A stretch of 64,000 bases of DNA from Patescibacteria group bacterium (lineage in GTDB: Bacteria > Patescibacteriota > Saccharimonadia > UBA4664 > SCTI01): the NCBI GenBank assembly GCA_004297735.1, contig SCTI01000002.1, positions 417,578-481,577 on the forward strand, in the 5' to 3' direction. The notes beneath the pieces were generated by a model. It saw only the letters and a list, made by a program, of their open reading frames with translations, was not told the origin of the DNA and ran no database searches. A program made the position numbers and the translations under genes. Below, in pieces: positions 1,631 to 55,951 of the stretch; positions within the stretch are counted from its first letter, which is position 1; each line of letters opens with the position of its first letter.

Positions 1631-2006
1631 AACCGATTCCGAAATCACCAAAATGTACTTACTCAACGATTCAGGCGAGGAGATAAAACAGGAGGAATGG
1701 CTGTCTGAGAGACGATTGGCCGATGAGTTGCTTGGACGGCTGGAGGGCTTCTTGAAGTCGGCCAATCAGACGTGGGATGACGTGACTGGCCTGGTTGTTT
1801 TTTTGGGACCTGGTTCGTTTACTGGTCTCCGCATTGGAATTACGGTAATGAATACAATCGCTTTTACAAAGCACATTCCTATTGCTGGCACAAAGCATGA
1901 CGACTGGCTGGTTGACGGTGCTTCGCAGCTGGCAAACGGCGAAGATGACAAGCAATGCGTGCCCTTTTATGGGGCGGAGCCGAATATTACCAAACCAAAG
2001 CGCTAA
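1614..2006 (+). CDS. tsaB: TsaB/YeaZ-like (inactive Kae1 paralog), short 130-aa form
   Basis: MYLALRTDSEITKMYLL...GLVVFLGPGSFTGLRIGITVMNTIAF is the conserved TsaB N-terminal core. Its start overlaps the tsaE stop. Confidence 0.75.
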   Translation: MYLALRTDSEITKMYLLNDSGEEIKQEEWLSERRLADELLGRLEGFLKSANQTWDDVTGLVVFLGPGSFTGLRIGITVMNTIAFTKHIPIAGTKHDDWLVDGASQLANGEDDKQCVPFYGAEPNITKPKR

Positions 2007-2169
2007 GTTGCCTTGACGAAGCCGTTGCGGGCGAGCTTAAATAGAGGTATTGAATTTTAACGTGCTGACTTTGCAGACTATCGACGCACGCTGATATACA
2101 ATCTGGTTTTTGATGAATCTGTATCCGCATTCGACGGGTCTGCGCTCAGCGCCTACATGGGAGGGCGTT

Positions 2170-3687: not shown

Positions 3688-3690
3688 CAT

Positions 3691-4515: not shown

Positions 4516-4519
4516 TTTG

Positions 4520-4795
4520 TTAATCTATAAATAAGCGCCATCTTGAGTCTGGCGGCAGCTTAGACGAAAATCTTTTTATTAAAAAATATATTACTATCCA
4601 TCCTGCAATAAAAACTCCCAGGGCTAATAAGCTTGGTGGCTCACCATTAACTCGACCGTCGATTAAGTAATGTACAAGGAATGAGAGAATAAGAGCTGCG
4701 ATAGCTGAAAGATAATAGGTCTTCCTGTAGGACTCCCTATGTATCGCTATTCGTGTCTGTCGAACATCTTCTTTTTTAGTAGATGACATACTCAC
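4520..4795 (-). CDS. Small hypothetical membrane protein
   Basis: 91-aa ORF with two hydrophobic helices (LSAIAALILSFLVHYLI, LALGVFIAGWIVIYFLI). AT-rich. Confidence 0.4.
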   Translation of the reverse strand: MSMSSTKKEDVRQTRIAIHRESYRKTYYLSAIAALILSFLVHYLIDGRVNGEPPSLLALGVFIAGWIVIYFLIKRFSSKLPPDSRWRLFID

Positions 4796-4875
4796 ATATT
4801 AACTCAACATAATCGCTTGGTATAGGCTCTAAATATCTGTTAAACTAGATCTTAGTAAGGGGAGGGCGGAGAGCA

Positions 4876-5166
4876 ATGACCAAGCAGAAATTGATCGACA
4901 CTCTAGCGCGCGAAACCTCGCTTAGCAAGCGAGAGGTGGAACAGGTCTTAGTTAAGCTCACCAACATCGTTGGTAAAACGATAAAGGAGGGTGAGAAGGT
5001 TTCGATTACCGGTTTTGGTACCTTTGATCTTGGTAAGCGCGCGGCACGTCGTGGCGTGAACCCACAAACCGGCGAGGAGATTCACATACCGGAGATGCCA
5101 ATGCCGCGATTTCGGGCCGGCAAAAGACTCAAAGAGGTGGTACGACCCGGCTCCTCACAGGTGTAA
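4876..5166 (+). CDS. hup: HU/IHF-family DNA-binding protein
   Basis: MTKQKLIDTLA...GFGTFDLGKRAARRGVNPQTGEEIHIP...RFRAGKRLKE is a canonical HU fold sequence. A GGGGAGGG RBS lies upstream. Confidence 0.9.
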   Translation: MTKQKLIDTLARETSLSKREVEQVLVKLTNIVGKTIKEGEKVSITGFGTFDLGKRAARRGVNPQTGEEIHIPEMPMPRFRAGKRLKEVVRPGSSQV

Positions 5167-5218
5167 AAGATTGCCTTTTAGCCTGCTGGCGGCTATAATA
5201 CCTCAGTTCTCACACCGT

Positions 5219-5295
5219 CGGGGTGTGGCGCAGTTGGCTAGCGCGCCTGCTTTGGGAGCAGGAGGTCGAAGGTTCAAGTCCTTTCACCCCGACCA
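5219..5295 (+). tRNA. tRNA-Pro (anticodon TGG)
   Basis: Cloverleaf with acceptor cggggtg/caccccg, anticodon loop tttggga, T-arm ggttcaagtcc, encoded CCA. Confidence 0.8.
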
Positions 5296-5301
5296 GAATA
5301 T

Positions 5302-5376
5302 GCGGGTGTCGTATAGTGGCTATTATGTCAGCCTTCCAAGCTGAAGACAGGGGTTCAATTCCCCTCACCCGCTCCA
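5302..5376 (+). tRNA. tRNA-Gly (anticodon TCC)
   Basis: Acceptor gcgggtg/cacccgc, anticodon loop cttccaa, T-arm ggttcaattcc, encoded CCA. Confidence 0.8.
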
Positions 5377-5489
5377 GGAATTATTTTATTACCGATAATC
5401 TGGCAAACCGGTTGTTATAACCAAGCATAAGCGTTACAATATACATATCTACCGAAGGGTGGAGAGTTCGATATTTTTGGAGATGCTGG

Positions 5490-8400
5490 TTGGAAGACAA
5501 AAGCTTGCAACAACCTGGACTGACAGGTAGTCAACCCCAGCGAACATCTGGCCCGCCTCAAACGGGTGGTTTAGTGTACCAAAGCGACATTACTCGACCG
5601 CAGCAATTATTGGGCCAACAGGTTGGGGGATTGGCGCAGTCGTTGGGCGCACCAGAACCGTCTAGCGTACCGGCGGAGTCAAGTGTTGCGCCTGAAACGA
5701 CGCCAGCAGTATCAGAGCCTGAGGTTGAAAGTAACCCAGAACCAACTCCCATTCCGGTTACCAACGATGTAACTCCACCTCCAGTGGCAGCTGATCCCGA
5801 ACCTACTCCAGCGGTTGCCGCGCCAGAACCGGTAGCTGGATCCTTAACCGGCGCCCTGGGTTCAGCCGAGGCAATTTCGCCACCGCTACCACCAGCCAAA
5901 TCCGAGGTTGCCAGCCCCTCGCCGACCGGTCCGTCGCGCCCCCGCCTGGGCCGTTTACGAATTGTACTTATCTTGCTGGTAGGACTGTTAATTATTGCCA
6001 TGCTAGCCCCGATTGCTTATCTGGGTTTTGCTAATTTACGCTCTAAGTCGGGTAGCGCTAATAACAAGGTTAATGGGGACTATACCGTTACCACCATACC
6101 GCTAAACGACTTGGTTAAAAGCGGGGACATTTCGTTTGATGCTTCGCGGCGAGTAAACATCAACGGCCAGCTTAAGATTAATAACTCGTTTGTGCTGACG
6201 CCTTCAGATACCCCTGACAATCCGCTGATTGGGCAGTTTTACCTTAACAACCAGAACACCACGCTGTACTACTACAACGGCAACTCATTTGTCGACTTAG
6301 TGACCGGCACACAGCTGGCGCAACTGACCACTACCGTAAATCAGACTCAGGCAATTGCCAATCAGGCTGCCTCCCAGACCATAACTTTGCCTCAAGACTT
6401 GGCAGTGACCGCCACACCAACCTTTGCCGGGTTGAATTTAAGTCAGCCGCTACCAATTGCAAGTGGCGGTACCGGAGCAACTACCGCAGCAGGTGCGCTT
6501 ACAAATCTTGGGGCGGCAGCTAGTGGCGCTAACAGCGACATCACCAGCTTGAACGCGCTGACTGCAATCAGCCCAACTACTGGAGTAACCTACCAGTTTG
6601 CGCCAGCAGTTGCCGGCACCTACGACCTGTGTTCGACCGCGGGTAACTGCGCTGGTGTGGGTGGTGGTGTGACAACCATCGGAGGCACTCCTGGCAGAAT
6701 TGCCAAGTTTAGCGCCGCCCAGGGCATTGTTGACTCGCTGTTGAGCGAAAGCGGGAGCACTGTCACCGCTAATGGAGATCTGGCTGTGACCGGCGGCGAT
6801 CTGGATTTGGGTAACGGAGTTAATCTTGATAGCGCGGTGGCCGATAGTCTGCATGTTGACGCCTCGCTGAACGTGGAAGGTACAATAACCAGCTTCTTGC
6901 AGATCTATTCATCTGAAAGTATTGTTGCGCGAAATGGGTCGAGTAATAAGGTGAGGATCGGTAATGTGGGTCCAAGTAATGAGGCGGGAATTACCTTTAG
7001 TAGCCTGGAGGACGTTAGTATTTACCGCAGTACGGCCGGTACGCTCAAGACCAACGGCAACTTCATTGTTCAGCCAGGTACGAACTCAACCACGGCTTTC
7101 CAGGTTCAAAATGCGGCTGGTACCAGTAACCTACTGGTGGCGGACACTACAAATACGCGCATTGGTATTGGGACGGCGGGGCCAAACTACACCCTAGATG
7201 TTGACGGAGACATTAATACCGGCAGTACCTACCGGATTAATGGAACCTCAATCTGTATATTGAGTGGCTGTGTGCCGTCTTCTGGGTCAAGTGCTTACAT
7301 TCAGAACGGCACGGTGCCGCAAGATGCCAACTACTACTTGCGCAGTGCCGCCGCCAACCAGATCACCGGTATACTGCAGGGCGCGGTTGGCCAGACGGCT
7401 GATCTGATTCAACTACGTAATCAAGCGGGCGGAATTGTTACTAGTGTGGGGGCTGACGGTAACGCTACCTTTACCACCACCAGCAACTCGGCGACCGCCT
7501 TCCAGATTCAGAATTCCAGCGGCCAAAATCTACTGGTGGCCGACACCAGCAACCAGCGATTGGCAATTGGCCCAGCCGCCTCACCGGCAAACAGCGTGTT
7601 GACTGTGGGCTCAAACACGACCGCGGCTAGCGGGGGAATTACTTTTGGGACCGATACTAATTTGTATCGTAGTGCCGCTAATCGGCTAAAGACCGACGAT
7701 AGCTTACAGGTTACAGGTGCTGGTGCATTTGGGAGTTCAGCAACCATACACGATATTGGTGCTATCCGGTCAACGATCAGCGCATCCGAAACCTATAGTG
7801 ATGCTTCCGCAGCAAGCTACATAACTGGCATTGATAATGAGTTGCATTTGAATTCTGACGCTAACGCCACGACCACAATCACGGGTATAGGTAACAGCGT
7901 TTTTCTGAATGGCTCCGGGTCTTACTCTAACTCTGCTGTATCGAGTCAAAATATTCTTTATAACTATAGTACTTCTGCCAGCGCATTAACTGGAGTTGAT
8001 AATAGAGTGGTAAACGAAGGGGACGTGGGCACGGCAATCGGGGGCTACAACGTGTACTCCACAAGTTATGGCACCACCAATCTTGCTCAAGGCTTGGTGT
8101 CGCAAATTTTAGCCACCAGTGAGGCTAATATAACTTCGGCTACGGGGGTATCGGCCGGTATTTCGAATCTTGGAACGGGTACCATAAACAACGGCTATGG
8201 CCTGCTTGTTACAACTGCGGTTAATTCGGGTGGTGGTGTCTTCCAAAACAACTACGGTATGTATATACAAGACCAGTCAGGGGTCGGTTCAACCAATAGC
8301 TACAACTTGTATTCGGCTGGGGTGAACGCAAAGAACTACATTGCTGGACTGCTCCAAGTTGGCACAACCAGCACGCCAACTCAGGCTGGAACAAACTTAC

Positions 8401-9023
8401 TAGCAAGCAATGTTGAGATAGGTGGAGCGTTAAGAGTGGGAGACGCAACCAACAACGTTCAGTTTGACGGAACTACTAAAAAGCTCATCTACAACGGTAC
8501 GGCTCGTCAGAATGTACGAGTGAGTATGAATCCGGAATACCAAGGAGCTGTGTTGACCGGTGATGGCTCGAATAACACCGGCACCATGACCACCGATTTC
8601 TGTTCTGGTTCGTCCCGCCTAAGCATCAACACCAGCGTCTGTGGTGCCACCGATGAGTACAACTACTACTCCTGGATAGGCTCTGGCGGAACCACCGATT
8701 ACGACGTGTATGTGCGCTGGCAGGTGCCAAGTAACTTCTCGGCCTTTAAAGACGCTAACGCAATCAATTTGCGTGGTTGGCGTTCAACTTCGAGCGAAAA
8801 GGTTGAGCTGGCCATGTTCCAGCAAAACGGCACCCAGTGTGGTAGCACCACCGAGGTTAACAGTAGTAACACTACCTGGCAGAGCACCAATATGACCGGC
8901 GACGAAACCGCTTGTAGTGTGAGCGCTGATGATGTGATAACCTTCCGCATTCGACTTACAGCCAGTTCGAGTGGCTACGCTCGGGCCGGATTGTTGGAAA
9001 TTAATTATCTGAGCAAGTTCTAA
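5490..9023 (+). CDS. Giant membrane-anchored surface protein with tail-fibre-like repeats (1177 aa)
   Basis: TTG start with a GGAG RBS. Pro/Thr/Glu-rich N-terminus, single TM (LRIVLILLVGLLIIAMLAPIAYLGF), then a Ser/Thr/Asn/Gly-rich ectodomain. It carries the motif IASGGTGATTAAGALTNLGA and repeated NLLVADT.N.R.GIG...P...L.V.GD units that resemble phage tail-fibre or hemagglutinin repeats. Confidence 0.6.
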   Translation: MEDKSLQQPGLTGSQPQRTSGPPQTGGLVYQSDITRPQQLLGQQVGGLAQSLGAPEPSSVPAESSVAPETTPAVSEPEVESNPEPTPIPVTNDVTPPPVAADPEPTPAVAAPEPVAGSLTGALGSAEAISPPLPPAKSEVASPSPTGPSRPRLGRLRIVLILLVGLLIIAMLAPIAYLGFANLRSKSGSANNKVNGDYTVTTIPLNDLVKSGDISFDASRRVNINGQLKINNSFVLTPSDTPDNPLIGQFYLNNQNTTLYYYNGNSFVDLVTGTQLAQLTTTVNQTQAIANQAASQTITLPQDLAVTATPTFAGLNLSQPLPIASGGTGATTAAGALTNLGAAASGANSDITSLNALTAISPTTGVTYQFAPAVAGTYDLCSTAGNCAGVGGGVTTIGGTPGRIAKFSAAQGIVDSLLSESGSTVTANGDLAVTGGDLDLGNGVNLDSAVADSLHVDASLNVEGTITSFLQIYSSESIVARNGSSNKVRIGNVGPSNEAGITFSSLEDVSIYRSTAGTLKTNGNFIVQPGTNSTTAFQVQNAAGTSNLLVADTTNTRIGIGTAGPNYTLDVDGDINTGSTYRINGTSICILSGCVPSSGSSAYIQNGTVPQDANYYLRSAAANQITGILQGAVGQTADLIQLRNQAGGIVTSVGADGNATFTTTSNSATAFQIQNSSGQNLLVADTSNQRLAIGPAASPANSVLTVGSNTTAASGGITFGTDTNLYRSAANRLKTDDSLQVTGAGAFGSSATIHDIGAIRSTISASETYSDASAASYITGIDNELHLNSDANATTTITGIGNSVFLNGSGSYSNSAVSSQNILYNYSTSASALTGVDNRVVNEGDVGTAIGGYNVYSTSYGTTNLAQGLVSQILATSEANITSATGVSAGISNLGTGTINNGYGLLVTTAVNSGGGVFQNNYGMYIQDQSGVGSTNSYNLYSAGVNAKNYIAGLLQVGTTSTPTQAGTNLLASNVEIGGALRVGDATNNVQFDGTTKKLIYNGTARQNVRVSMNPEYQGAVLTGDGSNNTGTMTTDFCSGSSRLSINTSVCGATDEYNYYSWIGSGGTTDYDVYVRWQVPSNFSAFKDANAINLRGWRSTSSEKVELAMFQQNGTQCGSTTEVNSSNTTWQSTNMTGDETACSVSADDVITFRIRLTASSSGYARAGLLEINYLSKF

Positions 9024-44589: not shown

Positions 44590-44788
44590 TGGGTATTCCT
44601 AACTTTTAGTAATCTAAAATAAGCATAACCATAATATGGGGTTATGGCAAGTTTAACCAAGATTTTGACTTGTATTAATTTATCAACTAGGTTATCTTTT
44701 TATGGATGAAAAACTATCCGCCCAAGCGAATAGACCAAGCCGCCTAGGGGCGGCTTTTTTCTTGCCCATTCACAACCGAGAGGACAAA

Positions 44789-45280
44789 ATGAGGTCAAAC
44801 CTGGTGCGCTGGGATTTTGAAGTAAGCGTCGATATTCAGGCAAAGGCGGTTAATCGAGCGAGTATTCAGTACACCCTGTTGGTGCGCTGCCCGCTCTGCT
44901 CAAGCTTGCATCAGCAGCTTAGTCCGGTCTTTTCCGCCCTTAATCGGGCCAACTACCGGCATGTTGATGAGCGAATGAAGTATCGCATGGTCATTAAGGA
45001 TGATGACGGCGACATCGTTGAGGTGATCGAATGGGTGACTCGCCAGAACATCGGTCACGAAACTCGTAACTTTATGACCGGTACCTGGAATTGCTCCGAT
45101 TGTGGCATCAACTTTGGTCTGACCGCGACCGAGCAGCGCCAGGTGCTCAAGGATGTAACCGATAAGGTTACGGTAGAGGCAATTGACGAAGAGATCATTC
45201 GTCTCGAAAAAGCCATATCGGGCGATCCGGCGACATCGAGAGGTCACAAAAAGCGCTACTGGTACCTCATGACAACTTAG
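44789..45280 (+). CDS. Hypothetical Zn-ribbon protein
   Basis: CPLCSS...CSDCG (four Cys). GAGAGGA RBS before the ATG at 44789. The ORF track starts the frame at 44702. Confidence 0.45.
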   Translation: MRSNLVRWDFEVSVDIQAKAVNRASIQYTLLVRCPLCSSLHQQLSPVFSALNRANYRHVDERMKYRMVIKDDDGDIVEVIEWVTRQNIGHETRNFMTGTWNCSDCGINFGLTATEQRQVLKDVTDKVTVEAIDEEIIRLEKAISGDPATSRGHKKRYWYLMTT

Positions 45281-45444
45281 TCCCCGTGGGGTCCCTACGG
45301 GGACTCCATCGATTAAACGGTTGTTTTTGGGGTTATCATGCTATAATCAAGCTGCAGAAAGATTCGTAGTTATGAGTTCGTGAGTTTGTATCGCAGTTCA
45401 GCCGCTACGCATAGGTCGAGCTGCGTGATAAAGAAGGAAAACTC

Positions 45445-46178: not shown

Positions 46179-48086
46179 TTAATCGGCGGTACGGTTGGTG
46201 GGCTGAACTGTACCTAACGGTATGGTCGCTCCAGTGTCATCCCAGAGGTTGCTGGTCCAGGTGATTTGAGCTTGGGCGCTTTGTGAATACTGAAACACGC
46301 CATACTGCGATCCCAGCGACCAGATATTACGCATAAAGCGATTATTTTGAATGACGATATTGGTAAGTGTATTTGCTCCAACCGGGTGGGCATAGACGGT
46401 GTAGCTGCCCGCACCCTGAAGCAGGTTGTTTTCGACGGTTACGTTTGAGATCGCACCGTCATCGGCCTTAATGATTACGCACGAGGTGCCGTTGTTGGTG
46501 TGTGCACCGGTGTAGTACCAGCTGCGCGGGTCGATGTAATTGCCTCTTATGGTGACGTTATCTCCCATTACTAGCTGAATTCCGTCACAGTGGTTGGTGC
46601 TCACCCCATCACCCTTTAAGTAGGCGTAAAGATCGTGAATATAGCAATCTTCGATGGTGGCGTTACCGGCCGCTTTAAAAGCGTCACCAAATCCGTAAAT
46701 ATTCACTCGCCGGGCGGTAAAGTCGCTATAGCCAATGCCGAAATCAAGGGCGATACCGTTGCCGGTGGGTTGGCCATCGACGTCAAACCATTGGCTGTCG
46801 GGCGGCGCGACGGTGCAATCTTCAATAATGGGCGAATTGCCGTTGGAGCGAATGTAGTTTTCGACCCGACAGAACCGAATCATCACGTCGGTATGCTGTA
46901 CCTCGATGTAGCCCTTAACGTTGAGGTTTTCAATCACCTGCCCATTGTAGGAGGTGGTGAGGTTGCCGTTATAGGTGCTCAGGGTGGTTCCCGCTGGAAC
47001 ACCGGTGGTATAGGCGCTTGGGTACACGTAACCGCCCGGACTGGCGGAGCCCCAGCTTGAGCCATTATGAATTGAGGAGTTGGAGTTCTGCCAGCGGCTG
47101 CCATTCCAGACCGCTACGCCTTCAACGCTGGGTCGCGCATTAACGGTAATGGTGACGGTATCGGTGTGGGTGGCTGTTCCGGAATCGGTCACGGTAACCT
47201 GGAAAACATAGGTGCCGGTAGTGGTAATGTACACCTGGGCTTTTTGAATATTGGCATTTTTAATGGTTGGGCTAGAGGGTCCAGAAATTTGAGTCCATGC
47301 ATAGGTGAGGACGCGACTAGAATCGGCGGCTCCGCTTGTGTCTTCGGCGTCTAGCGAAGCGCTGGCATCAAGCACCACGGTGGTTTTGGAGTAAACGGTC
47401 TGGTCGGCGCCAGCGCTGGCCACCGGGTTGACATTAACAATGTCTGGGGCCGGTTTAAGTGCAACATGTACGGCCGAAGAGTTACCGGTTAGATTGCTGG
47501 TTAATGTGACTGTGCCGGTGGCTCCAGCGGTAGCGTAGAGTTTTTCAAAAACAGCATGGTTGATTTGAGTGTTTAAGCCATAGTCGGCGCGCTCGGTTTG
47601 ATCGCCTGGTGCGGTAAAATCACTAGCAACACCGCCGTTACCGCCATTGTTGTTTTGACTACCAATTGCTAGTACTACAGCGTTGTTGGTAAGTGTGGTG
47701 ATCGATGGGGCGGTTAGGCTGGCGGTCGTAGTCCCACCACTAGCCTCAACCGGAGTGGTCGTATCAACCCCAGAATAACGCAGCATAAAACCGGCAGCCG
47801 GTGTACTTCCTCCGCTAACTACAAAGTCGTATGAAGCCGGTTCGCTGCCGGTAGCAAGCTTGGTATAAACGATGGTTTGATCGCTAGAGTTTGAGGTACC
47901 AAATCCACCCTGGGCGCGCTGAGTGAATCCGCTAGGCACGCTTGAAATTGTTCTGGTGTTACGAATTGAGACAACGGCAACCAGAGTGTCGTTAGCAACG
48001 ACGCCACTGGGCTTGGTGATTGTGAGGGTGGTAACGAAAGCGCCGTTATTGGTTGACGTTCCAACGCTGCGGTATTGAATAGCCAT
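46179..48086 (-). CDS. Phage-type tailspike/receptor-binding protein: N-terminal adaptor, PKD/Ig-like domain, right-handed parallel beta-helix (pectin-lyase fold)
   Basis: YAWTQISGPSSPTIKNANIQ...YVFQVTVTDSGTATHTDTVTITVNA is the Ig-like domain. Repeated beta-helix rungs: IRFCRVENYI, IEDCTVAPPD, ATIEDCYIHDL, NVTIRGNYIDP, NVTVENNLL, NIVIQNNRF. Confidence 0.6.
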   Translation of the reverse strand: MAIQYRSVGTSTNNGAFVTTLTITKPSGVVANDTLVAVVSIRNTRTISSVPSGFTQRAQGGFGTSNSSDQTIVYTKLATGSEPASYDFVVSGGSTPAAGFMLRYSGVDTTTPVEASGGTTTASLTAPSITTLTNNAVVLAIGSQNNNGGNGGVASDFTAPGDQTERADYGLNTQINHAVFEKLYATAGATGTVTLTSNLTGNSSAVHVALKPAPDIVNVNPVASAGADQTVYSKTTVVLDASASLDAEDTSGAADSSRVLTYAWTQISGPSSPTIKNANIQKAQVYITTTGTYVFQVTVTDSGTATHTDTVTITVNARPSVEGVAVWNGSRWQNSNSSIHNGSSWGSASPGGYVYPSAYTTGVPAGTTLSTYNGNLTTSYNGQVIENLNVKGYIEVQHTDVMIRFCRVENYIRSNGNSPIIEDCTVAPPDSQWFDVDGQPTGNGIALDFGIGYSDFTARRVNIYGFGDAFKAAGNATIEDCYIHDLYAYLKGDGVSTNHCDGIQLVMGDNVTIRGNYIDPRSWYYTGAHTNNGTSCVIIKADDGAISNVTVENNLLQGAGSYTVYAHPVGANTLTNIVIQNNRFMRNIWSLGSQYGVFQYSQSAQAQITWTSNLWDDTGATIPLGTVQPTNRTAD

Positions 48087-48089
48087 ATG

Positions 48090-48593
48090 TTATGGCCCGG
48101 AGGTGTTTATCCAGATGTCTCCCGAGGCCAGCGTAACGCCCACCGATGCCGGATCAACCGTCCCGCGAAAGATGCGGCTGCTTGACGTTACAACATAACT
48201 ATTGGTACCGGAATCGTAGGTGTAGACCGCCGCCGCTGTGTCGGCTCGTGTCAGGCTGGTTTGGGTGCTGGAGTCCAGCTTGGTTCGAGCTATTGCCGCC
48301 CCACTGGCCACCTCGGTGTTGGTGATAGCTAGGCTGAGCTTGCTTTGGGCAATTGCTGCACCCGAAGCCACCTTGGCATTGGTAATTGCACCGTCCGCAA
48401 CGGTGGTGTCGTTGAGCTTGGTCTGAACAGCTGTTGCCAGCTTGGTTTCTGTAATAATGCCGTCTTGAATCTGACCGGCACCAACCGTATTTGATTTAAG
48501 CTCTCCAGTGTCGGATAGGCTTTGCGATAAGTACTCATTTAAAATATCACCCCATGAGCCGTTGTCTTGGCCGGGAATAGGTAGTCGAGCCAT
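48090..48593 (-). CDS. Phage tail-fibre N-terminal/repeat protein
   Basis: MARLPIPGQDNGSWGDILNEYL, then the tail-fibre repeat pattern I.DG.IT..KLA..AV...KL. Its stop lies 3 nt from the tailspike start. Confidence 0.6.
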   Translation of the reverse strand: MARLPIPGQDNGSWGDILNEYLSQSLSDTGELKSNTVGAGQIQDGIITETKLATAVQTKLNDTTVADGAITNAKVASGAAIAQSKLSLAITNTEVASGAAIARTKLDSSTQTSLTRADTAAAVYTYDSGTNSYVVTSSSRIFRGTVDPASVGVTLASGDIWINTSGP

Positions 48594-48693
48594 TTAATTG
48601 TGCCTCACGGTATAACTCATGTCGCTTATGATTATTGTGTATACGTTACCTTTGGTCAACAGCTAAATAACAGGTTTATCAATTTAACGAAAA

Positions 48694-48742
48694 ACCCGCC
48701 GGTGCGACCGGGGCCACACCTTGGTGCGGGTTTCCGTGTCGC
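48694..48742 (-). terminator. Rho-independent terminator (minus strand) between the small-gene pair and the tail-fibre operon
   Basis: On the minus strand, aaacccgc...gcgggtttt is followed by a T-run, with inner ccggtgcgaccgg and caccttggtg hairpins. Confidence 0.6.
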
Positions 48743-48756
48743 CCCAGCGGGGGGAT

Positions 48757-49113
48757 TTAGGACTGAAATACAGCGATCTCGCCGTAGAACATGTATTCAA
48801 TTTGGTAGACCTCGCGTAATTCCGCGTTCAGCCTCTCTCTTTCGGTGAGCGAGAATGGAATAGGTGGGAGCAACTTCTCCAGCTCCCCAAAAGCCCTAAG
48901 CAGCTTCTGGGTCGACTGCTTGCTCCCGTCGAGCGCGTAGTAGCTGCTATTCTGGGTTGGATCATGTCCAGTTTTGAGCGCCACAACTTGATTTTGGTGG
49001 GAGTGAAAACCCCCGCTGCTCAGCTGTTTTACGCCCGTTGGAATGGCTTGCCGAATTTCTTCGACAATATCCGATACCTCTAGATGCAGCATTGCTAATT
49101 CTCGGAAGCTCAT
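48757..49113 (-). CDS. Hypothetical protein
   Basis: 118 aa. Sits 7 nt downstream of the next gene on the same strand. Confidence 0.45.
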   Translation of the reverse strand: MSFRELAMLHLEVSDIVEEIRQAIPTGVKQLSSGGFHSHQNQVVALKTGHDPTQNSSYYALDGSKQSTQKLLRAFGELEKLLPPIPFSLTERERLNAELREVYQIEYMFYGEIAVFQS

Positions 49114-49120
49114 AGCTAGC

Positions 49121-49492
49121 TCAGTAGAAAGGGATGATCATGAGATCTAGCTTGATCTCTGGCTTAGATACGTCGGGCAGAAGCTTTTTGACCGCCGCCT
49201 CCAGCTCGTGCTTAAAGGAGTTTACGGCGCCGCTACAGAGCTTTGCCGGAACCCAAACTCGCACCTGAACGTCGAAGCGGGCGCTGTCACTGTTATTGGT
49301 GAAGTAGAACAGGTAGTTGACCGCTCCGGGCAGCTGAATTCCCAGCTCCTCAAGGTCAAACATATTTGCCGCTACGCTGATCACGACATCTTTCAGGTTG
49401 TCGGGTAGATCTTTCATGGCGTAGCCATACCGCTCATGGGCCGTATGTCGCATGAAAACCTCGATATTCCAGTCCGACATAACTATCTCCAA
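49121..49492 (-). CDS. Hypothetical protein
   Basis: 123 aa. Its 5' leader contains the perfect palindrome ggttgagcc-a-ggctcaacc. Confidence 0.45.
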   Translation of the reverse strand: MEIVMSDWNIEVFMRHTAHERYGYAMKDLPDNLKDVVISVAANMFDLEELGIQLPGAVNYLFYFTNNSDSARFDVQVRVWVPAKLCSGAVNSFKHELEAAVKKLLPDVSKPEIKLDLMIIPFY

Positions 49493-49635
49493 TTTCGGGG
49501 TTGAGCCAGGCTCAACCAGGTGCTTTCAAGAGAATATGCTATTTTGGCATTCACAAGCTATAAAATGCAAGCATAAAAACAAAGAACGCCCCGCGGTAAC
49601 GGCAGCCCAAAGGGCGTTCTTGTTACTGCGGGGCG

Positions 49636-50311
49636 CTAGACCAGGTGGGCGTAGCTCCCGACGACGTGAACTACTAGCTCCTCGAAATCGACTCCGAGGA
49701 TTGAGCAGACCGCCGCTGCCGTTGCCGGATCAAGGCGTTCACGATCCTTGATGAGTTCGGCGGCTAACCGACACTGTTCGGATTTGTTGGGGGTGTACCT
49801 TTCGACGTCATCTTTTACGACGCTAAGAAGTTGGCGCTCAAAGGCAGCATCCTCTTGTCTGCCGACCTCGCGGGCCGCCTCGAGATGAGCCTGATCCTCC
49901 TGGTTCTGACGGTTGAACTCGATCTGCTCGGCGCTTGCTTTGCGCTGCTGGCGTAGACCCTGATCCTCGTCGAGCGAGTAGAGCGTCATGCCGGCCGCTA
50001 GCTGAGTGACCACGCCCTCGGGAGTGCCTTCGGGGCACAGGACAAAGTGAAGGCGCGGACGTGGCAGGTGCTGTTGCTCGAAGAACAGCACCGAGTCAGC
50101 CAGCCGGATGGTTGTATTATCTGGCAGCTCGGTCGGCCAGACCGCGCAGAACACAGATCATCTGACTGGTTTTTTCCTCGCTGCGTAGCGGGGAGGCGAG
50201 CAGCACGGGTTTGACTTGGGGTAGCTCGCTCCGGCTTTCTGCAATGGCCTCGGCGCACTCAAGGAGCGAGGTATACAGTTCGCCATTGAGCCCATTGTGA
50301 GTGGAAGTCAT
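49636..50311 (-). pseudogene. Frameshifted paralog of the 50449..50886 gene (two overlapping ORFs, 50117..50311 and 49636..50154)
   Basis: MTSTHNG...LRSEEKTSQ in one frame continues as ...TELPDNTTIRLADSVLFFEQQHL in another. The intact paralog reads through contiguously (EEKSSQTLTVLPADPALFQWHTY). The frames change around the homopolymer at 50170-50175 (plus-strand TTTTTT). Confidence 0.5.
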
Positions 50312-50448
50312 GTGGCCTCTCGGTGGTTGGTATTTCAAGGAAAGCAATATTGTACAATAAATCATAAGATTATCAATAATAAGAGCTAATAAAAGCAAAA
50401 CGCCCGCCGACCACATGGCCGGTCTTACGGCGTTTGCGGTCAGCGGGC

Positions 50449-50886
50449 TTAGGCGGCCAGCGGTGTATCTCGAAGCCGAGTCCGGTTACGGCCCACCTGC
50501 CAGCTGGGCGCAGCGGGCGCCAGGATCAGGCCGTGAGGGCCTGGGTGAACCTGGTGAAGCCGAATTCCGGTCTGAAGCTCTCGGATGACCCTTGCAGCCG
50601 TCTCGTATGGGCAGGTCGCCAGGTAGAGGCAGTTGAGCCCGTAGGTGTGCCACTGAAACAGGGCCGGGTCGGCCGGGAGGACGGTCAGAGTCTGGCTCGA
50701 CTTTTCCTCCACCTGTTCGCGAAGGTAGGTGCTCATCAGTTCGAGCTTGTGAGGGAACCCGAATTCCCACTTGAGCGAACTCAGGTTGATCCCAGTGCCA
50801 CCGTTTCCTAGCCGCATAAACCCGGCGCACTGTTCGAGTAGATCCAAAGTGCGACGGTCTAGCAGGCTGGCTGCTGTGGAGGTCAT
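50449..50886 (-). CDS. Hypothetical protein, paralog family MTST...
   Basis: 145 aa. It has its own promoter (TTGATT-17-TAAAAT) and its own intrinsic terminator at about 50398-50440. Confidence 0.5.
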   Translation of the reverse strand: MTSTAASLLDRRTLDLLEQCAGFMRLGNGGTGINLSSLKWEFGFPHKLELMSTYLREQVEEKSSQTLTVLPADPALFQWHTYGLNCLYLATCPYETAARVIRELQTGIRLHQVHPGPHGLILAPAAPSWQVGRNRTRLRDTPLAA

Positions 50887-51009
50887 GTAACTCCTTTTTT
50901 CGGTTCAAAGAACAGATTATATTTTACAATAAAACAGATGAATAATCAATATAAAAAGTCAATAAAAACGAAAACCCCCAAGCGGGGGCTTTCGCCTCTA
51001 CCTGAGGGT

Positions 51010-51732
51010 CTAATCGATGAGCGATGGTGGGACGTGAGGCGCCAGGTTGACTGCCTGCGCCAGCATGTGCGGCGTGTCGAGCACCAGCGGTGCGTGATCC
51101 GGCGCGTGAATGGTGCCAGTGGCCAACAGGCGAACGACTCGGGTATTTCTGGGGTCGTGTCGCGGTGACTCCACAACCTCGACGATGTCGCCATCAAGTA
51201 GGTGGCGAGTTCCAAAAAGGGAGTGCCAGCCTCGCCGACTCTCTCCCATGGACTGCATTCCGTAGTAGGGGTGCGATTCGAAGAAGGTCTCCTGGAAGGC
51301 ATCGAACATACACACCGGTTCACCATCTTCGCTCAGCACTGGGTAGGCGAAGATGTCGCCTTGACGCCGAGTGTGTTCGTGACCGAACTCCTCTTCGCTC
51401 CACTTGATGAAGTCTGGCTTGAGCGCCTCGAACAAGGCCTGTTCGCCGTCTCGCTCAAGCACATCCTTGAGCTGCCCGCGGACGGACACCAAAAAAGGCT
51501 GTTCGTCGGTGCCACCGAAATAGAGAGCACCGGTTTGATAGTTCGGCCGCCGTCCTTCGAAGAACAGGAACTGCTCCCCGCCGAGAAGCGGATGGAACTC
51601 TGCGCCCTTGCCTGGGCGCAGGATGATGCTTGACTTAATCCGCTGAGCCCCTTCTGCATATTCGTTCGAGGGGTGAGTGCTCAACTGAGCCAGTCCCGCC
51701 GTCTGGGGGAGCTTCTTCATGTCAACGATCAT
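51010..51732 (-). CDS. Hypothetical protein (possible cupin/double-stranded beta-helix-like His motifs)
   Basis: 240 aa with FGHEHTRRQGD and TGTIHAPDHAP. An intrinsic terminator lies downstream at about 50967-50995 (cccccgcttggggg plus a T-run on the minus strand). Confidence 0.4.
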   Translation of the reverse strand: MIVDMKKLPQTAGLAQLSTHPSNEYAEGAQRIKSSIILRPGKGAEFHPLLGGEQFLFFEGRRPNYQTGALYFGGTDEQPFLVSVRGQLKDVLERDGEQALFEALKPDFIKWSEEEFGHEHTRRQGDIFAYPVLSEDGEPVCMFDAFQETFFESHPYYGMQSMGESRRGWHSLFGTRHLLDGDIVEVVESPRHDPRNTRVVRLLATGTIHAPDHAPLVLDTPHMLAQAVNLAPHVPPSLID

Positions 51733-51916
51733 TACCGTAACCTCTTTCGGTTTTTGTTCGGTTACTTGTATCTAGGATAGATGGGCCGACGGAAAAGTGC
51801 AAGGGGCAATATAGCCGCATTCTTTCAGTGAGCAAAGGTCTTAAGCTTTTATTTTTATGCCTAAAATGGTAAACATATAACGATTTAGCCATTGGACATT
51901 GACAAGGAGGTACGAG

Positions 51917-53248
51917 GTGTACGGAACGAAAGATCTTGCCCTGCAGCCTTCATTGGTGAATATTTGGGCGTGGGCAGTGGAGGGTGATCTGACTCACCGG
52001 CCTCATCCGTGTGTGGGTATTGACGATGCGCTGGTCGGCTGGGAGCCATGCGAAACAATTGGTGAGTTTATTTCGCTCCTGCAAGAGGAAATGAGACGAG
52101 CGGAGGACCTCACGAGCGAAATCCCGGACGTAGCTCGTAAAAGGGTAGAATTTTTTATCCGCCGAGTGGCGCGCAAGGTGCCCGAGAGCTTGGTGAGCGG
52201 ACTTTGGATAGTGAGAAACGTGTTGCGTTTCGAATCACCTGAGTTTTCGGAGCACTGGTTCGATATAGTAGGCGTGTTCATTAAAACTGTTCATACTCTA
52301 GCCGGGACTGAGCATCGTCTTCTGGTTGGGACAAAAGATCATAAGCCTGCTTGGTGCAAGCTTGATCCACCCGTAAGAACGATGGACGATTGGTGTGATC
52401 TAATCGACAGCGCATTCTTTGATGATGCACAGATCATGCCCTTTATCAGCGAGGATGATACCGATCTAATCCCTCACCCCCTAGAATGGGTGCCATCAAA
52501 AACGCTTACCAAGATGTGGAAATCCTTTCCGGATGTTGACCGTTCAGTGGTCGAAGGGGTTTTTGAGAGCGCTTACTACAACCAACACTTCACCCCTTAT
52601 CCTCACGGAATGGTGGTTAGAATTGAGGGACATACATGGATTAAGCAGCTTACCTTAAAGGTCAATAAGGGCGTTCAGGATGCTAACTACCTGGACTTTC
52701 TTGCCCGTATCCAAACCGTCGACGGCGAATTGACCTATATGGTGAATGGAGCTGATATTACGCATGAAATAAGCACGATGACGGTATCCTCCATTGGGAC
52801 TAACTATCTAGACCTTCTGATTGCGCAAATCTTCCACGATCTTGTAACCGTGAGGCGGCAACATAGTGTGGCCGGGGGAGTTCAGCTAGTTGGCGAGGGG
52901 AAGCCGGAGGAGCTGAACGGCGTTAGCTGGATTTACATACCTCGGACCCATCGCTTAAAAAATAATGCTGAGATCCGTCTTCCAAGTACTAACTCAGAGC
53001 CTCGGTCGCCACATAGGGTTCAGGGGCACCCTCGCAAAGGCAATATGTCAGAGGAGCAACGCTTTAGAATTGAGGAATTTGAGGCTTCTACCGGACTAGA
53101 GGTTCTTAGGCATCTTCCAGAGGGACACACCTATGTGCGCCCCCACGTATCACCGCTGTCGGACGTTGACGAGCTTAGCCTCCTGCCAAAGTTTGTGCGA
53201 ACTCGTCTTCAGAATGACTTGATCCGGATTATGCAGACACTGCCCTAG
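51917..53248 (+). CDS. Hypothetical 443-aa protein
   Basis: GTG start 5 nt after AAGGAGGT (the ORF track's TTG start at 51899 includes the SD itself). No recognisable catalytic motif. Confidence 0.45.
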   Translation: MYGTKDLALQPSLVNIWAWAVEGDLTHRPHPCVGIDDALVGWEPCETIGEFISLLQEEMRRAEDLTSEIPDVARKRVEFFIRRVARKVPESLVSGLWIVRNVLRFESPEFSEHWFDIVGVFIKTVHTLAGTEHRLLVGTKDHKPAWCKLDPPVRTMDDWCDLIDSAFFDDAQIMPFISEDDTDLIPHPLEWVPSKTLTKMWKSFPDVDRSVVEGVFESAYYNQHFTPYPHGMVVRIEGHTWIKQLTLKVNKGVQDANYLDFLARIQTVDGELTYMVNGADITHEISTMTVSSIGTNYLDLLIAQIFHDLVTVRRQHSVAGGVQLVGEGKPEELNGVSWIYIPRTHRLKNNAEIRLPSTNSEPRSPHRVQGHPRKGNMSEEQRFRIEEFEASTGLEVLRHLPEGHTYVRPHVSPLSDVDELSLLPKFVRTRLQNDLIRIMQTLP

Positions 53249-53461
53249 TCGAAACCTGGCACCTTGCGTATAGCAATAAGAGCTACAGTTTAGGCTGTAG
53301 TAATTCGCTATTCGCAGGGTGCCCCTAATTTAATGAAATTATAATTCCTTGGTGGACCGCCGGGTATCGAATTGGAATTTATTAATACAAGTTATGCCGG
53401 GGTTGCGTACCCGGCACCTTCTCTAGGAAGGACGGCTCGTTCAGGATGAACTTCCATCTGC

Positions 53462-54970
53462 TTATGGCCGTCGGATTCGTCCAACAAACCACGGAGGCGT
53501 CTCTTCGGCAGGCGGAACTCCGCGACGGGCTTTGCGTTTGAGACAGCGCTCAACCTCGGTGCGCAGCAGCGGGCCGTCGGGATGGGCGTCACTGATGACC
53601 TCGGGGTCACCCGACACCTTGACCCGAACTAGGAGCTGGATGTCATGGGGAAGTACCGGGAAGGTCGACTTAACGCCGCAATCCTCGCGGTTCTTCTTGT
53701 AGGTGACCAGCGGTACAGTTACCACGCCAACCGGCTTGAGCTCACCGTCCACCCGGTCAAAGAAGTACTCAACCGGGTAGCTGGTGGGCTTCTTGTTGCC
53801 GGCGATCTCCACCGTCATGGGTGCCAGATCGTACAGCCCCTGCTCCATCATCTCCTCGATGAGCTCGCGATCGTCGGGTAGCCGTAGATCGGTGGTCAGG
53901 AGCTTATCGGCAGCGACTCCTTCGAGCCGCTGACGGTAGTGCTCCCGAACCGTCTCTTCGGTGTAGCGATCGATATCTCCGCCCGACCGGATGCTGAACA
54001 GGTCGTAGGCGGCGATGAGCTCGTTGTTGAACCTGACGTCCGGGTGGGTGATCCGCCCAGACAACAGCTCCTCTAACAGCGACTCAGAGACGTCCTGGCT
54101 GGTGAGCCGTTCGATCTCCTTTTCGACCTCTCGAATCGCCTGCACTGCGCTGTCGCGTGAATGACCGTAGCGCCGCCCGCGGGAGTCGATGTGGTGCGGC
54201 ATAAAGTCGTCCCACACCACTAGCGAAAGGCTGTCGGAGTACTCCCACTGGAAGGCGTCCGCCACTGTTCGCTGGGCGTGACGGAGGAGTCGTTCGAGCG
54301 TGTCGGTTGGTATGCCGACCGCTTCGAGCTCCGCCAGCTTGACCTGCAGCTCTTTGAGCCGCGTGTCCCAGCTGCGCCGGTCATGGTTGCGCTTCTCCTC
54401 AGTCCTATAGCGGCGGTAGTTGTCCCGCATGCTCTCGAGCGAGTAGCCACGTCCGACGATGTCGCCTTTGGCGTCAATCACCTCAAAGCCAGTGATTTCG
54501 GCGTTGTGCGGCGTTGACGGCCAAGTCGTGAGGTTGAACACGTCGTTGATCGACACCTGAATGGTGGCGGTGACGTACCCCGGGTAGTAGCTGATGGTGT
54601 AGACCGCGTACAGCCAGACACCTTCGTGCTCAAAGCGGTCGGGTTCTGGCGTGGCCGGGACCGGAGGGGTCTCATAGGTCCAGTCGGCCGGCTGGTCAAA
54701 CGACGGCTCAACCGGCGCATAGCGCTGATCGGCCAGCCAGCGGTCAAGATCACGACGTAGACCCTCATCCTTGAGGACGTCGTAGGCCTCGGTCGCCTCG
54801 TTAAACAGCGAACCAGCCTCGGCGAGCTCTTCGGGTGTCGCATCCGGTCCGAGTCGGTCCGGATGTAGCTCCTTGGCGCGATCGCGGTAGGCCCGCTTGA
54901 TGTCGCTGGTGGTGGCCTCGCGGGGCACACCAAGAACAAGGTAGTGATCCTTGAGAATCAACTTTGGCAT
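53462..54970 (-). CDS. J-domain (DnaJ-like) protein with a ~430-aa uncharacterised C-terminal region
   Basis: DHYLVLGVPREATTSDIKRAYRDRAKELHPDR is a canonical J-domain with the HPD tripeptide. No Gly/Phe-rich region and no Zn-finger repeats follow it. Confidence 0.6.
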   Translation of the reverse strand: MPKLILKDHYLVLGVPREATTSDIKRAYRDRAKELHPDRLGPDATPEELAEAGSLFNEATEAYDVLKDEGLRRDLDRWLADQRYAPVEPSFDQPADWTYETPPVPATPEPDRFEHEGVWLYAVYTISYYPGYVTATIQVSINDVFNLTTWPSTPHNAEITGFEVIDAKGDIVGRGYSLESMRDNYRRYRTEEKRNHDRRSWDTRLKELQVKLAELEAVGIPTDTLERLLRHAQRTVADAFQWEYSDSLSLVVWDDFMPHHIDSRGRRYGHSRDSAVQAIREVEKEIERLTSQDVSESLLEELLSGRITHPDVRFNNELIAAYDLFSIRSGGDIDRYTEETVREHYRQRLEGVAADKLLTTDLRLPDDRELIEEMMEQGLYDLAPMTVEIAGNKKPTSYPVEYFFDRVDGELKPVGVVTVPLVTYKKNREDCGVKSTFPVLPHDIQLLVRVKVSGDPEVISDAHPDGPLLRTEVERCLKRKARRGVPPAEETPPWFVGRIRRP

Positions 54971-55275
54971 GGTGTGCCTTTCTGGTTGTAGAGGTGCTTG
55001 TGGCTATGCCACCATCGTCGCAGCAAGCGATTAAACATTATAACATAAAATTCTAAATAAGTCCAATGGTGAACTACCGTGTATCGAATTGGAACCAAAT
55101 CAAGAGGGAGCTGGTGTCGTGGAGTAAATCTTTATCTGGAGAACAACTATTAAAGACTACGACCGGGTAATGGAATCAGCATGATCTTGCTGATATTATT
55201 GGCTTATGGTGTTCAAAGGATTCTAATTTACTCCATACGTCGAAACAAAGCGTCCAGCGAGGCGCAAATTTAACT

Positions 55276-55785
55276 ATGGAGAAAATTATGAATAAGAATG
55301 AATTAGACCCCAAAGTAAGCAGCACGTTAAGCTCAGCCAATATGGCATATGAGATTCTAGACTGCAGCGATGAGCTTGCCGATACAGCAGCTTTCTGCGA
55401 ACACTACAAAGTCTCGTTAGATCAGGCCGCGAATACATTACTGGTGGCATCAAGGAAAATTGAACCAACTCGGTATGCGGTTTGCGTAGTTCTTGCCACT
55501 ACGAGGTTGGATGTTAATAAAAAGGTTTCAGAGCTACTCGGTGCAAAGAAACTATCTTTCGCAGATGGCGAGACAACTCAGCGACTGACCGGGATGATGA
55601 TCGGTGGCGTTACAGCGGTTGGTATCAAAGATCTGCCTATCTATGTTGATACTGAGGTGATGCAGCGCGATAAGGTGGTGATGGGTGGTGGCAACCGAGT
55701 CACTAAAATCCTCATTAGTCCTCAAGAACTACTTAAGCTCAAAGAGGTTCAGGTTGTGCAGGGTCTAGCGAAAACAAGAGCGTAG
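55276..55785 (+). CDS. YbaK/ProX-type aminoacyl-tRNA deacylase domain protein
   Basis: 169 aa, ...KKLSFADGETTQRLTGMMIGGVTAVG...GGGNRV. Host-like AT-richer composition. Confidence 0.5.
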   Translation: MEKIMNKNELDPKVSSTLSSANMAYEILDCSDELADTAAFCEHYKVSLDQAANTLLVASRKIEPTRYAVCVVLATTRLDVNKKVSELLGAKKLSFADGETTQRLTGMMIGGVTAVGIKDLPIYVDTEVMQRDKVVMGGGNRVTKILISPQELLKLKEVQVVQGLAKTRA

Positions 55786-55876
55786 GCCAGATAAAACGGG
55801 TACATGGGGCGGGATATGAATCTCGCCCCACCCTGTTGGTTTCAAAAATAATAGATTTACAAAAACTATAATTCCT

Positions 55877-55951
55877 TGGTGACCCCACGGGGATTCGAAC
55901 CCCGGTTGCCAGGATGAAAACCTGGTGTCCTAACCCCTAGACGATGGGGCC
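55877..55951 (-). tRNA. tRNA-Glu (anticodon TTC)
   Basis: Reverse complement: acceptor ggcccca/tggggtc, anticodon loop ttttcat, T-arm cggggttcgaatccccg, CCA encoded. Confidence 0.8.

Follow-up and report, generated by a model that had tools for sequence, protein, structure and literature searches.

A probable tRNA-Glu-anchored plasticity zone with exchangeable small gene units in a Saccharimonadia chromosome

The stretch analysed here, called the window, comprises 64 kb of contig SCTI01000002.1 from a metagenome-assembled genome of Saccharimonadia (Patescibacteria), and positions refer to this window unless another sequence is named. Between 48.7 and 55.0 kb, the window carries a block of unannotated genes beside a tRNA-Glu gene, which an earlier note on this DNA had described as an array of single-gene cassettes within a foreign island. 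The block is best read as a tRNA-Glu-anchored plasticity zone of the chromosome and not as one functional system, a reading to which we assign a probability of roughly 0.6. Comparison of sequences indicates repeated insertion of DNA at or near the tRNA-Glu 3' end, with decayed tRNA 3'-end copies as its traces, and the genes appear to form separate transcription units with their own conserved, predicted promoters and terminators. A PGK query placed the closest GTDB genomes in Saccharimonadia/Saccharimonadales, and NCBI labels the proteins "Patescibacteria group bacterium". The close comparison set consists of two metagenomic contigs, L002 (JGI sample 3300025093) and L003 (Logan run SRR24975958).

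The junction with the tRNA gene lies at the right end of the block, where J502 (53462-54970, minus strand), encoding a J-domain protein, is separated by YbaK (55276-55785, plus strand; PF04073 tRNA_edit) from tRNA-Glu (UUC; 55877-55951, minus strand). The tRNA gene was located with ARAGORN, scores 61 bits with the Rfam tRNA model, and directs its 3' end towards the island. A repeat search revealed two direct repeats on the minus strand, one pairing 55067-55094 with 53350-53377 (28 nt, 86% identity) and the other pairing 53328-53367 with 55855-55894 (40 nt, 78% identity), where the copy at 55855-55894 spans the tRNA-Glu 3' end and its downstream flank. By a hand estimate made without a dedicated tool, about 0.002 (28-nt) and 0.0004 (40-nt) such matches would be expected by chance in the 12.6-kb region. 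The block thus lies 3' of a tRNA gene and is accompanied by direct repeats of that gene's 3' portion.

Two of these repeat regions are interpreted as insertion scars. Scar b (55067-55094, minus strand) is a decayed copy of the tRNA-Glu 3' end that abuts the -35 element of the J502 promoter. As seen in an alignment of the upstream regions, the live tRNA-Glu 3' end of L003 (...GGTTCGAATCCCCGTGGGGTCACCA) runs straight into the J502 promoter (TTGGACTTAT...TGTTATAATG), and the window and L002 both carry a decayed tRNA 3'-end copy (TTCCAATTCGATACACGGTAGTTCACCA in the window) at exactly the position of the live end in L003. The live tRNA-Glu is displaced from scar b, lying 0.8 kb further away in the window and 2.1 kb in L002, and the displaced interval holds YbaK in the window versus DUF5677, a 156-aa protein and NUDIX in L002, with about 20 nt conserved at each end. 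In the window, this interval (55095-55876; GC content 0.46) separates the live tRNA-Glu from the old 3' end, and L003 has no such segment. The decayed copy, the shifted tRNA and the differing cargo between conserved ends argue for an insertion event that entered the tRNA 3' end and pushed the old end aside, and scar b thus probably records the insertion of the YbaK segment between tRNA-Glu and J502. Scar c (53328-53377, minus strand) is a second copy resembling the tRNA 3' end; it is similar to scar b in its core and, in its flank, to the sequence that follows the live tRNA-Glu. It follows directly after the conserved J502 terminator, opens the window-specific segment with u443 and u240, and was not found downstream of J502 in L002 or L003, so that it seems to accompany the arrival of u443 and u240. 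Repeats b and c together bracket J502 with its promoter and terminator, and J502 may conceivably once have been excised and reintegrated as a mini-element. In the scar region, Rfam recognised the real tRNA alone.

The same slot carries different genes in related genomes. A frame running from histidine kinase, response regulator and DUF5684 genes through an RRM gene and J502 to tRNA-Glu is common to L002 and L003, and the genes between these anchors differ among the window, L002 and L003. The tail-fibre-like genes PKD635 and tf167 are present in L002 (79% and 62% identity, respectively) and absent from L003, while u192 and u145 show the opposite distribution, being found in L003 and missing from L002. 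Members of the 221-aa family occur in both contigs, u118 is full length in L003 (a 124-aa protein, 53% identity) and reduced to a 39-aa fragment in L002, and u119, u240, u443, u120 and YbaK have no counterpart in either. As in the window, tRNA-Glu adjoins PGK in L002, and it does so in two more distant Saccharimonadia, L014 and L015. In the slot beside these two genes, L014 (4389-8416) encodes an ArsR/YHS regulator, a copper P-type ATPase and DUF305, a content that resembles a metal-resistance cassette, and L015 encodes a polysaccharide deacetylase, DUF2127 and unannotated genes. Because a syntenic frame holds different genes in L002, L003, L014 and L015, the tRNA-Glu slot appears to be a hotspot with other cargo in every relative examined. 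These four comparisons agree with the earlier description of a tRNA-adjacent island of atypical composition and establish that its content varies among relatives. The label "foreign" applies in part, as variable content and atypical composition speak for it, but J502 is not recent cargo, since the same tRNA-Glu junction, promoter and terminator are found in L002 and L003.

Within the block, the gene content and layout given in the earlier note were reproduced by the open reading frame (ORF) calls, and the same set, called in the same way, was recovered from run SRR8426595 in an independent Logan assembly; NCBI locus tags for block proteins are EPO04_04195 and EPO04_04200. The pair at the right end is arranged as described, with u443 on the plus strand (51917-53248; GTG start at 51917 and an AAGGAGG ribosome-binding site upstream), convergent with J502 and divergent from u240. 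The remaining genes lie on the minus strand and comprise u240 (51010-51732), a stand-alone family, u145 (50449-50886), a short paralog of the 221-aa "MTS" family, the overlapping u64 (50117-50311) and u172 (49636-50154), and u119 (49121-49480) with u118 (48757-49113). The flanks are also as reported, in that the tail-fibre/tailspike-like pair tf167 and PKD635 (46179-48593, minus strand) closes the co-oriented block distally, and YbaK and tRNA-Glu lie on the opposite side. The term "single-gene cassettes" proved too broad, as two of the supposed cassettes are a two-gene operon (u119-u118, 7-nt gap) and one frameshift-split gene of the 221-aa family (u64/u172). The median gap between neighbouring genes on the same strand is 130 nt in the block versus 45 nt in the rest of the window.

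Most of these units are bounded by predicted regulatory sites, all on the minus strand. The J502 promoter (55037-55065; TGGACT-17-TG-TATAAT, followed by a conserved 5' untranslated region, UTR) is near-invariant in the window, L002 and L003, and the J502 terminator hairpin (53394-53417; -15.3 kcal/mol) is conserved in both relatives. The terminator of u240 (50961-51002) has a 19-bp stem (-27.5 kcal/mol). Upstream of u145 lies a promoter of a type named P-a (50921-50949), whose motif TTATTGTAAAAT occurs in the whole window only here and at 50349, and downstream lies terminator T-b (50390-50435; -17.9 kcal/mol), which is 89% identical to that of an L002 gene for a 183-aa membrane protein unrelated to u145. 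The promoter of u64/u172 (50349-50376), likewise of the P-a type, is 83% identical to the promoter of this same L002 gene, and terminator T-a after u172 (49574-49635; -29.1 kcal/mol) is conserved after the L002 221-aa gene. The u119-u118 operon starts from a promoter and 5'UTR module, P-b (49481-49573), which shares 80% identity over 105 nt with the DNA preceding an L002 128-aa gene, and ends at terminator T-c after u118 (48686-48735; -25.1 kcal/mol), which is 78-90% identical in L002 and L003. In general, promoter-like -35/extended -10 sites were seen upstream of J502, u145, u64 and tf167 and weaker ones before u119 and u240, while a promoter and terminator scan of the block gave no convincing promoter or terminator for u443. 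A generic consensus scan detected 11 promoters against 9.8 +/- 3.0 expected, i.e., no enrichment, and 21 terminators against 13.5 +/- 3.7, an enrichment of about 2 standard deviations. The credibility of the calls thus derives from their position, their orientation and the 80-90% conservation of the modules in relatives, not from scan enrichment. A promoter and a terminator for each gene, as the earlier note had it, are accordingly predicted and conserved for most units, but not for u443.

Small hairpins were observed in two of the leader regions. In the J502 5'UTR (window 54971-55036; L002 ~9935-10000; L003 ~68-133), the hairpin reads GTGGC-ATA-GCCAC in the window and shows a compensatory change, GTAG/CTAC in L002 versus GTGG/CCAC in L003; it may be a conserved regulatory element. 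A further 5'UTR hairpin, with compensatory changes GTTGAG/CTCAAC versus GTCGAG/CTCGAC, lies upstream of u119 (49490-49520) and of the L002 128-aa gene (~14375-14400).

The intergenic modules are better conserved than the genes they enclose, with 80-90% identity between genomes versus ~69-75% for homologous coding DNA in blastn comparisons. Homologous flanks even enclose unlike genes: u145 and the L002 183-aa protein share no significant similarity, and u119, which has no relative in L002 or L003, gave no alignment with the L002 128-aa protein. The window, L002 and L003 do not arrange their 221-type and 145-type units in the same order. When eight of their cassette promoters were aligned, a common design emerged, TTGATAAT-N-TTATTGTAAAAT-N-TATTCYTTGAAA, and the extended -10 word TTATTGTAMAAT occurs twice in the window, both times in the array, and is confined to the arrays in L002 and L003. 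At the protein level, u145 shares 56% identity with an L003 145-aa protein and 37% with the L003 221-aa protein, in the N-terminal part of the latter. Three-frame translation against L002 and L003 identified u64 and u172 as one 221-aa-family gene with one extra base near 50128-50140, causing a +1 frameshift; this base lies outside a homopolymer run, and the same split is present in the Logan assembly of SRR8426595. An assembly error, a variant within the population or a genuine pseudogene would each account for the split. Alongside this frameshift, the u118 fragment kept by L002 is a further sign of decay. A hidden Markov model (HMM) of the 221-aa "MTS" family detected a 121-aa member ~10 kb from a J502 homolog in another contig (L004) and gave no match in the stretch around a second homolog (L007). 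The idea that the 221-aa family contains a helix-turn-helix regulator was dropped, the HTH_26 match being sub-threshold and found in a single member. The cassette proteins of the window are soluble, lack hydrophobic segments and are mostly acidic, while in L002 a thioredoxin with a membrane anchor and a multi-pass membrane protein are among them, indicating that the array is functionally heterogeneous.

Taken together, the small cassettes appear to be a co-designed, recombining set that has been shuffled, duplicated, split or replaced between relatives. Saccharibacteria are naturally competent (PMC10633639), which makes exchange through conserved flanks plausible. It could be speculated that the array is an integrase-free gene-capture platform, with P-a/P-b and T-a/T-b/T-c serving as fixed "expression slots" and homology arms through which competent Saccharimonadia swap unrelated ORFs, although we regard this as improbable. 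If true, the platform would provide a co-regulated, strain-variable set of accessory proteins beside a conserved J-domain gene. In L003, a ~90-nt module consisting of a hairpin (CCACCCACCGAGGTCT...AGACCTCGGTGGGTCTTCAATTTAAG) and a P-a promoter was seen in duplicate (2555-2600 and 3270-3320), before two different cassettes.

Base composition separates the block into layers. The GC content of third codon positions (GC3) is 0.68-0.76 in J502, u240, u145, u172 and u119 versus ~0.55-0.60 elsewhere in the window; the GC3 bias noted earlier therefore holds for these genes, but not for u443 (0.53), whose composition is native-like, or u118 (0.60). In all three genomes, J502 and the P-a cassettes form one compositional class (GC 0.58-0.63, GC3 0.65-0.78), which contrasts with a GC content of 0.50-0.53 in the core and 0.43-0.46 in the low-GC YbaK and DUF5677/NUDIX segments.

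Across the eight unannotated proteins of the block, the J domain of J502 is the sole domain recognised by Pfam, PHROGs or PADLOC. The J-domain assignment made from the sequence was confirmed (PF00226, E 1.2e-15), with the HPD motif at residues 36-38; in the family alignment, P37 and D38 are invariant and H36 is found in 11 of 12 members, the remaining one carrying YPD. PF00226 is the only Pfam match, PDB profile matches fall within residues 1-113, and a G/F-rich region, zinc finger or DnaJ C-terminal domain is lacking, as in class C proteins. J502 thus appears to be a class-C-type J-domain protein with a novel C-terminal region of ~400 aa. When the C-terminal 427 residues were used as query, 12 clusters were retrieved among 5.8 billion proteins, all of them 487-513 aa long and containing the J domain, and many positions are invariant across the whole C-terminal region. 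J502 relatives were found neither among GTDB species representatives nor in IMG/VR, and searches with the C-terminal region gave no sequence or structural relative and no known fold, BFVD matching the J domain only. The AlphaFold model (mean predicted local distance difference test score 77) places a small beta domain (111-175) and a long helical hairpin (178-237) after the J domain, followed by a helical bundle (272-376) and a second beta domain (386-452).

The orthologs in L002 and L003 are 70-71% identical to J502, whereas more distant homologs occur in other settings. In L004 and L007 (35-38% identity), they lie within 15-20-kb stretches of small unannotated genes, ~10 kb from a tRNA gene (tRNA-Arg and tRNA-Asp, respectively), and the L007 stretch also encodes a second J-domain protein, ParE/RHH, an Rv2179c-like exonuclease and a 2'-5' RNA ligase-like protein. 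The homolog in L079 (59% identity) is a solitary gene in metabolic surroundings and again has a promoter and terminator of its own. Because these contexts vary, J502 is regarded as a monocistronic, lineage-restricted gene with no obligatory neighbour; a tie to the 443-aa protein, raised in the earlier note, does not hold, as u443 is absent from L002, L003 and every other J502 context examined. J502 may act as a specialised Hsp70 co-chaperone whose HPD J domain stimulates DnaK, as J domains generally do (PMC3486835, PMC6715715), and its novel C-terminal region would then select a client or a location. The dnaK gene itself does not lie within the window.

The 443-aa protein was listed in the earlier note as an unknown, and a word-index search returned u443 alone. 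An exhaustive phmmer search, however, placed it in an unannotated family of about 125 representative clusters (125 found, 104 with E below 1e-10), whose members mostly measure 430-490 aa. The conserved core of the family includes YHDLVT, W.YIPR, PHRV.GH.R, FE.ETG, TFVRPH.SP and LPRFIR.R.Q, of which W.YIPR ... PHRV.GH.R ... TFVRPH.SP ... LPRFIR.R.Q form a conserved basic C-terminal motif. Searches of Pfam, PHROG, PADLOC, NCBIfam and PDB sequences gave no significant match, and none was found in IMG/VR. One homolog, P0034 (38% identity), is encoded between the ribosomal protein genes S8-L6-L18-S5-(138 aa) and secY in ERZ1426827 (genes 599-5627), where an additional gene is not usually expected. 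Another lies beside AbiEii and Mrr in an element resembling an integrative and conjugative element (ICE; L063), and a tandem pair occurs near a SocA-like gene and a large serine recombinase; the remaining contexts consist of housekeeping genes without a conserved partner. In a further contig (L065), a homolog is flanked on both sides by a direct repeat of 64 nt (75% identity; 7591-7654 and 9165-9228), whose copies each lie within an inverted-repeat structure of ~85 nt, with tRNA-Asn 850 nt downstream. The family looks mobile or borne by mobile elements. That u443 itself is a tRNA-targeting recombinase or resembles an insertion sequence was considered and set aside, since terminal inverted repeats are lacking, consistent flanking direct repeats were found at one locus alone, tRNA genes are nearby in few loci and the neighbours are mostly housekeeping genes; the idea is retained as weak speculation. 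In L063, ARAGORN predicted tRNA-Ser (2114-2207) and tRNA-Arg (15401-15477), each of which overlaps a large serine recombinase gene at its 3' end.

The u240 family carries the invariant motifs FGGTDE.PF / RQGD / TRH / APDH, which are enzyme-like, and the protein is confidently folded in prediction with no fold match. The possible double-stranded beta-helix histidine motifs proposed earlier for this 240-aa protein were not substantiated, as a test for a cupin/double-stranded beta-helix fold was negative and u240 is not a cupin. An L002 242-aa protein was rejected as a u240 homolog (hhalign probability 0.4%).

Similarity to phages is confined to the tail-fibre-like pair. The tf167 protein matches the PHROG minor-tail family phrog_2012 (E 1e-13), while in PKD635 a PKD domain is combined with a right-handed beta-helix, and weak matches to hypothetical proteins of Ruegeria phages were obtained for the N-terminus. 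When the rest of the block was compared with 50,697 phage and 72,556 plasmid records (tblastn with a 2,030-aa concatenate), no match was obtained. In agreement with the earlier note, profile searches (Pfam, PHROGs, PADLOC) assigned no Walker A, nuclease, integrase or transposase model to the block proteins, and no recombinase model matched any ORF between 44 and 57 kb. Terminase, capsid, portal and repressor genes were likewise absent from the block. PADLOC-DB v2 gave noise-level matches alone for the window proteins (E >= 0.016), and 0 of 49 u443-family members were matched meaningfully; together with the phage and plasmid searches, this lends no support to the suggested link with defence or anti-defence. 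The proposed moron-like layout is retained as regards independent predicted promoter and terminator units; no prophage is recognisable around them.

Other parts of the window hold features of their own. Two adjacent giant ORFs (5490-9023 and 9024-13646; 1,177 and 1,540 aa) are not rpoB/rpoC, have no Pfam match, show a flat GC content over the codon positions (~0.51/0.52/0.53), like PKD635, and are flanked by tRNA-Pro/Gly and tRNA-Arg/His clusters. They may encode large surface proteins or constitute a second tRNA-flanked island. The u192 protein (44702-45280), with 64% identity in L003, adjoins the highly conserved RRM protein and contains two CxxC pairs (CPLC ... CSDC), which suggest a zinc ribbon. 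Directly after its stop codon lies a hairpin (45281-45305), one arm of which (13 nt, TCCCCGTGGGGTC) matches part of the inverted tRNA-Glu 3' end without a mismatch. This match (45281-45300) was considered as a further scar and rejected, as it lies inside the terminator-like hairpin and is probably a coincidence.

A plasticity zone is not the only possible explanation of the block. It could be a single decayed prophage at tRNA-Glu, with the tail pair as its last structural genes and J502 and the cassettes as morons or early takeover genes. The phrog_2012 match of tf167, the beta-helix and Ruegeria phage similarity of PKD635, the tRNA-adjacent position, the atypical composition and a unit architecture like that of morons (PMC3594210) would all fit, as would the analogy with J-domain proteins by which phages hijack DnaK; a functional J-domain protein is documented in a phage (Rki of phage RB43; PMC3486835), and there are J-domain PHROGs. 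Yet genes for an integrase, terminase, capsid, portal or repressor are lacking, the C-terminal region of J502 as well as u443, u240, u145, u172, u119 and u118 are unmatched in the 50,697 phage records, and J502 and u443 were not found in IMG/VR, with BFVD matching the J domain alone. Moreover, L003 is without the tail-fibre-like pair and still keeps J502 and cassettes, and at least three compositional layers and two scars point to several events, making a single prophage doubtful. Less likely still is a coherent conflict system built on J502, in which the J domain recruits DnaK to an MTS-encoded effector or sensor and the cassettes act as specificity or immunity modules. The MTS family does occur within ~10 kb of a J502 homolog in 4 of 6 contexts (the window with two copies, L002, L003 with two and L004), but three of these four co-occurrences come from close relatives and are not independent; the family is absent near the homolog in L007 and not among the genes called beside the L079 homolog, and the copy beside J502 in the window is frameshifted. 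Cassette turnover under a common promoter would suit co-regulated, fast-evolving conflict genes, as would the islands of small unannotated genes around the L004 and L007 homologs, the latter including ParE/RHH, an exonuclease and an RNA ligase-like gene; however, no protein was matched by PADLOC, and the cassettes of relatives include ordinary genes for a membrane thioredoxin and a multi-pass membrane protein.

The genes could also be ordinary, vertically inherited and fast-evolving lineage-specific genes without horizontal transfer, the repeats and composition being incidental. J502 with its promoter and terminator is indeed syntenic in three genomes, its protein identity (70%) is similar to that of the core histidine kinase and response regulator neighbours (64-78%), and Patescibacteria genomes are rich in unannotated genes. 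This explanation fits poorly with homologous slots that hold different, unrelated genes, with the absence of u443, u240, u119 and YbaK from close relatives, with tRNA 3'-end copies located exactly at the junctions where content differs, with three distinct compositional classes, and with u443 relatives in an ICE-like element and a ribosomal protein operon; we consider it very unlikely. The plasticity zone is favoured over these explanations, but several observations weigh against it. The close relatives compared are two in number, both metagenomic contigs, and a search of the block and its surroundings for genes encoding an integrase, excisionase or transposase, and for phage core genes, gave no candidate for the inserting agent, while the phage link consists of tf167 and the weak PKD635 match. 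In addition, scars b and c are more alike than either is to the live tRNA-Glu, and the reading does not account for a scar downstream of J502, a gene itself conserved at the junction. Finally, a high GC3 in the face of ~30% protein divergence is odd for an old acquisition, and gene-specific selection could be its source instead.

If the plasticity zone is accepted, its history may be pictured in layers. The oldest layer would be J502 with the high-GC small cassettes, and perhaps the tail-fibre-like pair, as the residue of an integrated mobile element acquired before the three genomes diverged; a prophage origin of this layer is possible. The YbaK segment and the u443 and u240 segment would represent later layers. 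Turnover would proceed by recombination between the repeated promoter and terminator modules, perhaps helped by natural competence, and the other block proteins would be independent cytoplasmic accessory proteins.

Genomic islands are common in Patescibacteria (PMC12455944). With their tiny genomes and epibiotic lifestyle, these bacteria carry strain-variable genes that are mostly uncharacterised. The locus offers a concrete picture of gene flux in this group, with relic scars, compositional layers, and cassettes reordered or replaced between regulatory modules. It also brings forward unannotated families worth studying, i.e., J502 for its novel client-side region, u443 with its ~125 clusters and u240 with its enzyme-like motifs. 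As no new mechanism is indicated so far, its value is that of a lead, not of a discovery.

Among known systems, the block resembles tRNA-linked genomic islands formed by tandem accretion in its position 3' of a tRNA, in the degenerate tRNA-end repeats at variable junctions, in its atypical composition and in its differing cargo. Unlike these islands, it is without an integrase or excisionase, its repeats are decayed (78-86%), one repeat lies behind the conserved J502, and its segments are very small, ~0.8 to 2.4 kb. Integron cassette arrays and recombinase-associated immunity-gene arrays (rAID) likewise consist of co-oriented, small, unrelated and exchangeable ORFs with recurring intergenic modules, as does the block. 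The block lacks IntI or a Xer-type recombinase, toxin fragments and known immunity families, and in contrast to integrons, in which promoterless cassettes end in attC, its cassettes carry their own predicted promoters and T-tract terminators; attC sites were not searched for with a dedicated model. With phage morons, which are independent transcription units (PMC3594210), the block shares promoters and terminators of its own, deviant composition, a patchy distribution among relatives and adjoining tail-fibre-like genes, but it differs in having no recognisable prophage or homologs in phage collections, and in units that share a promoter design and exchange ORFs between conserved flanks. J502 itself resembles specialised class C (type III) J-domain proteins, such as Rki of phage RB43, a documented functional phage J-domain protein (PMC3486835), and the bacterial AtcJ (PMC6715715), in combining an N-terminal HPD J domain with a unique and presumably client-specific C-terminal region. 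It differs from them in belonging to a family of just 12 clusters in 5.8 billion proteins, in a C-terminal region without relatives and in having no known partner or client. The locus is a noteworthy case of a familiar type of genomic hotspot and not a new defence system.

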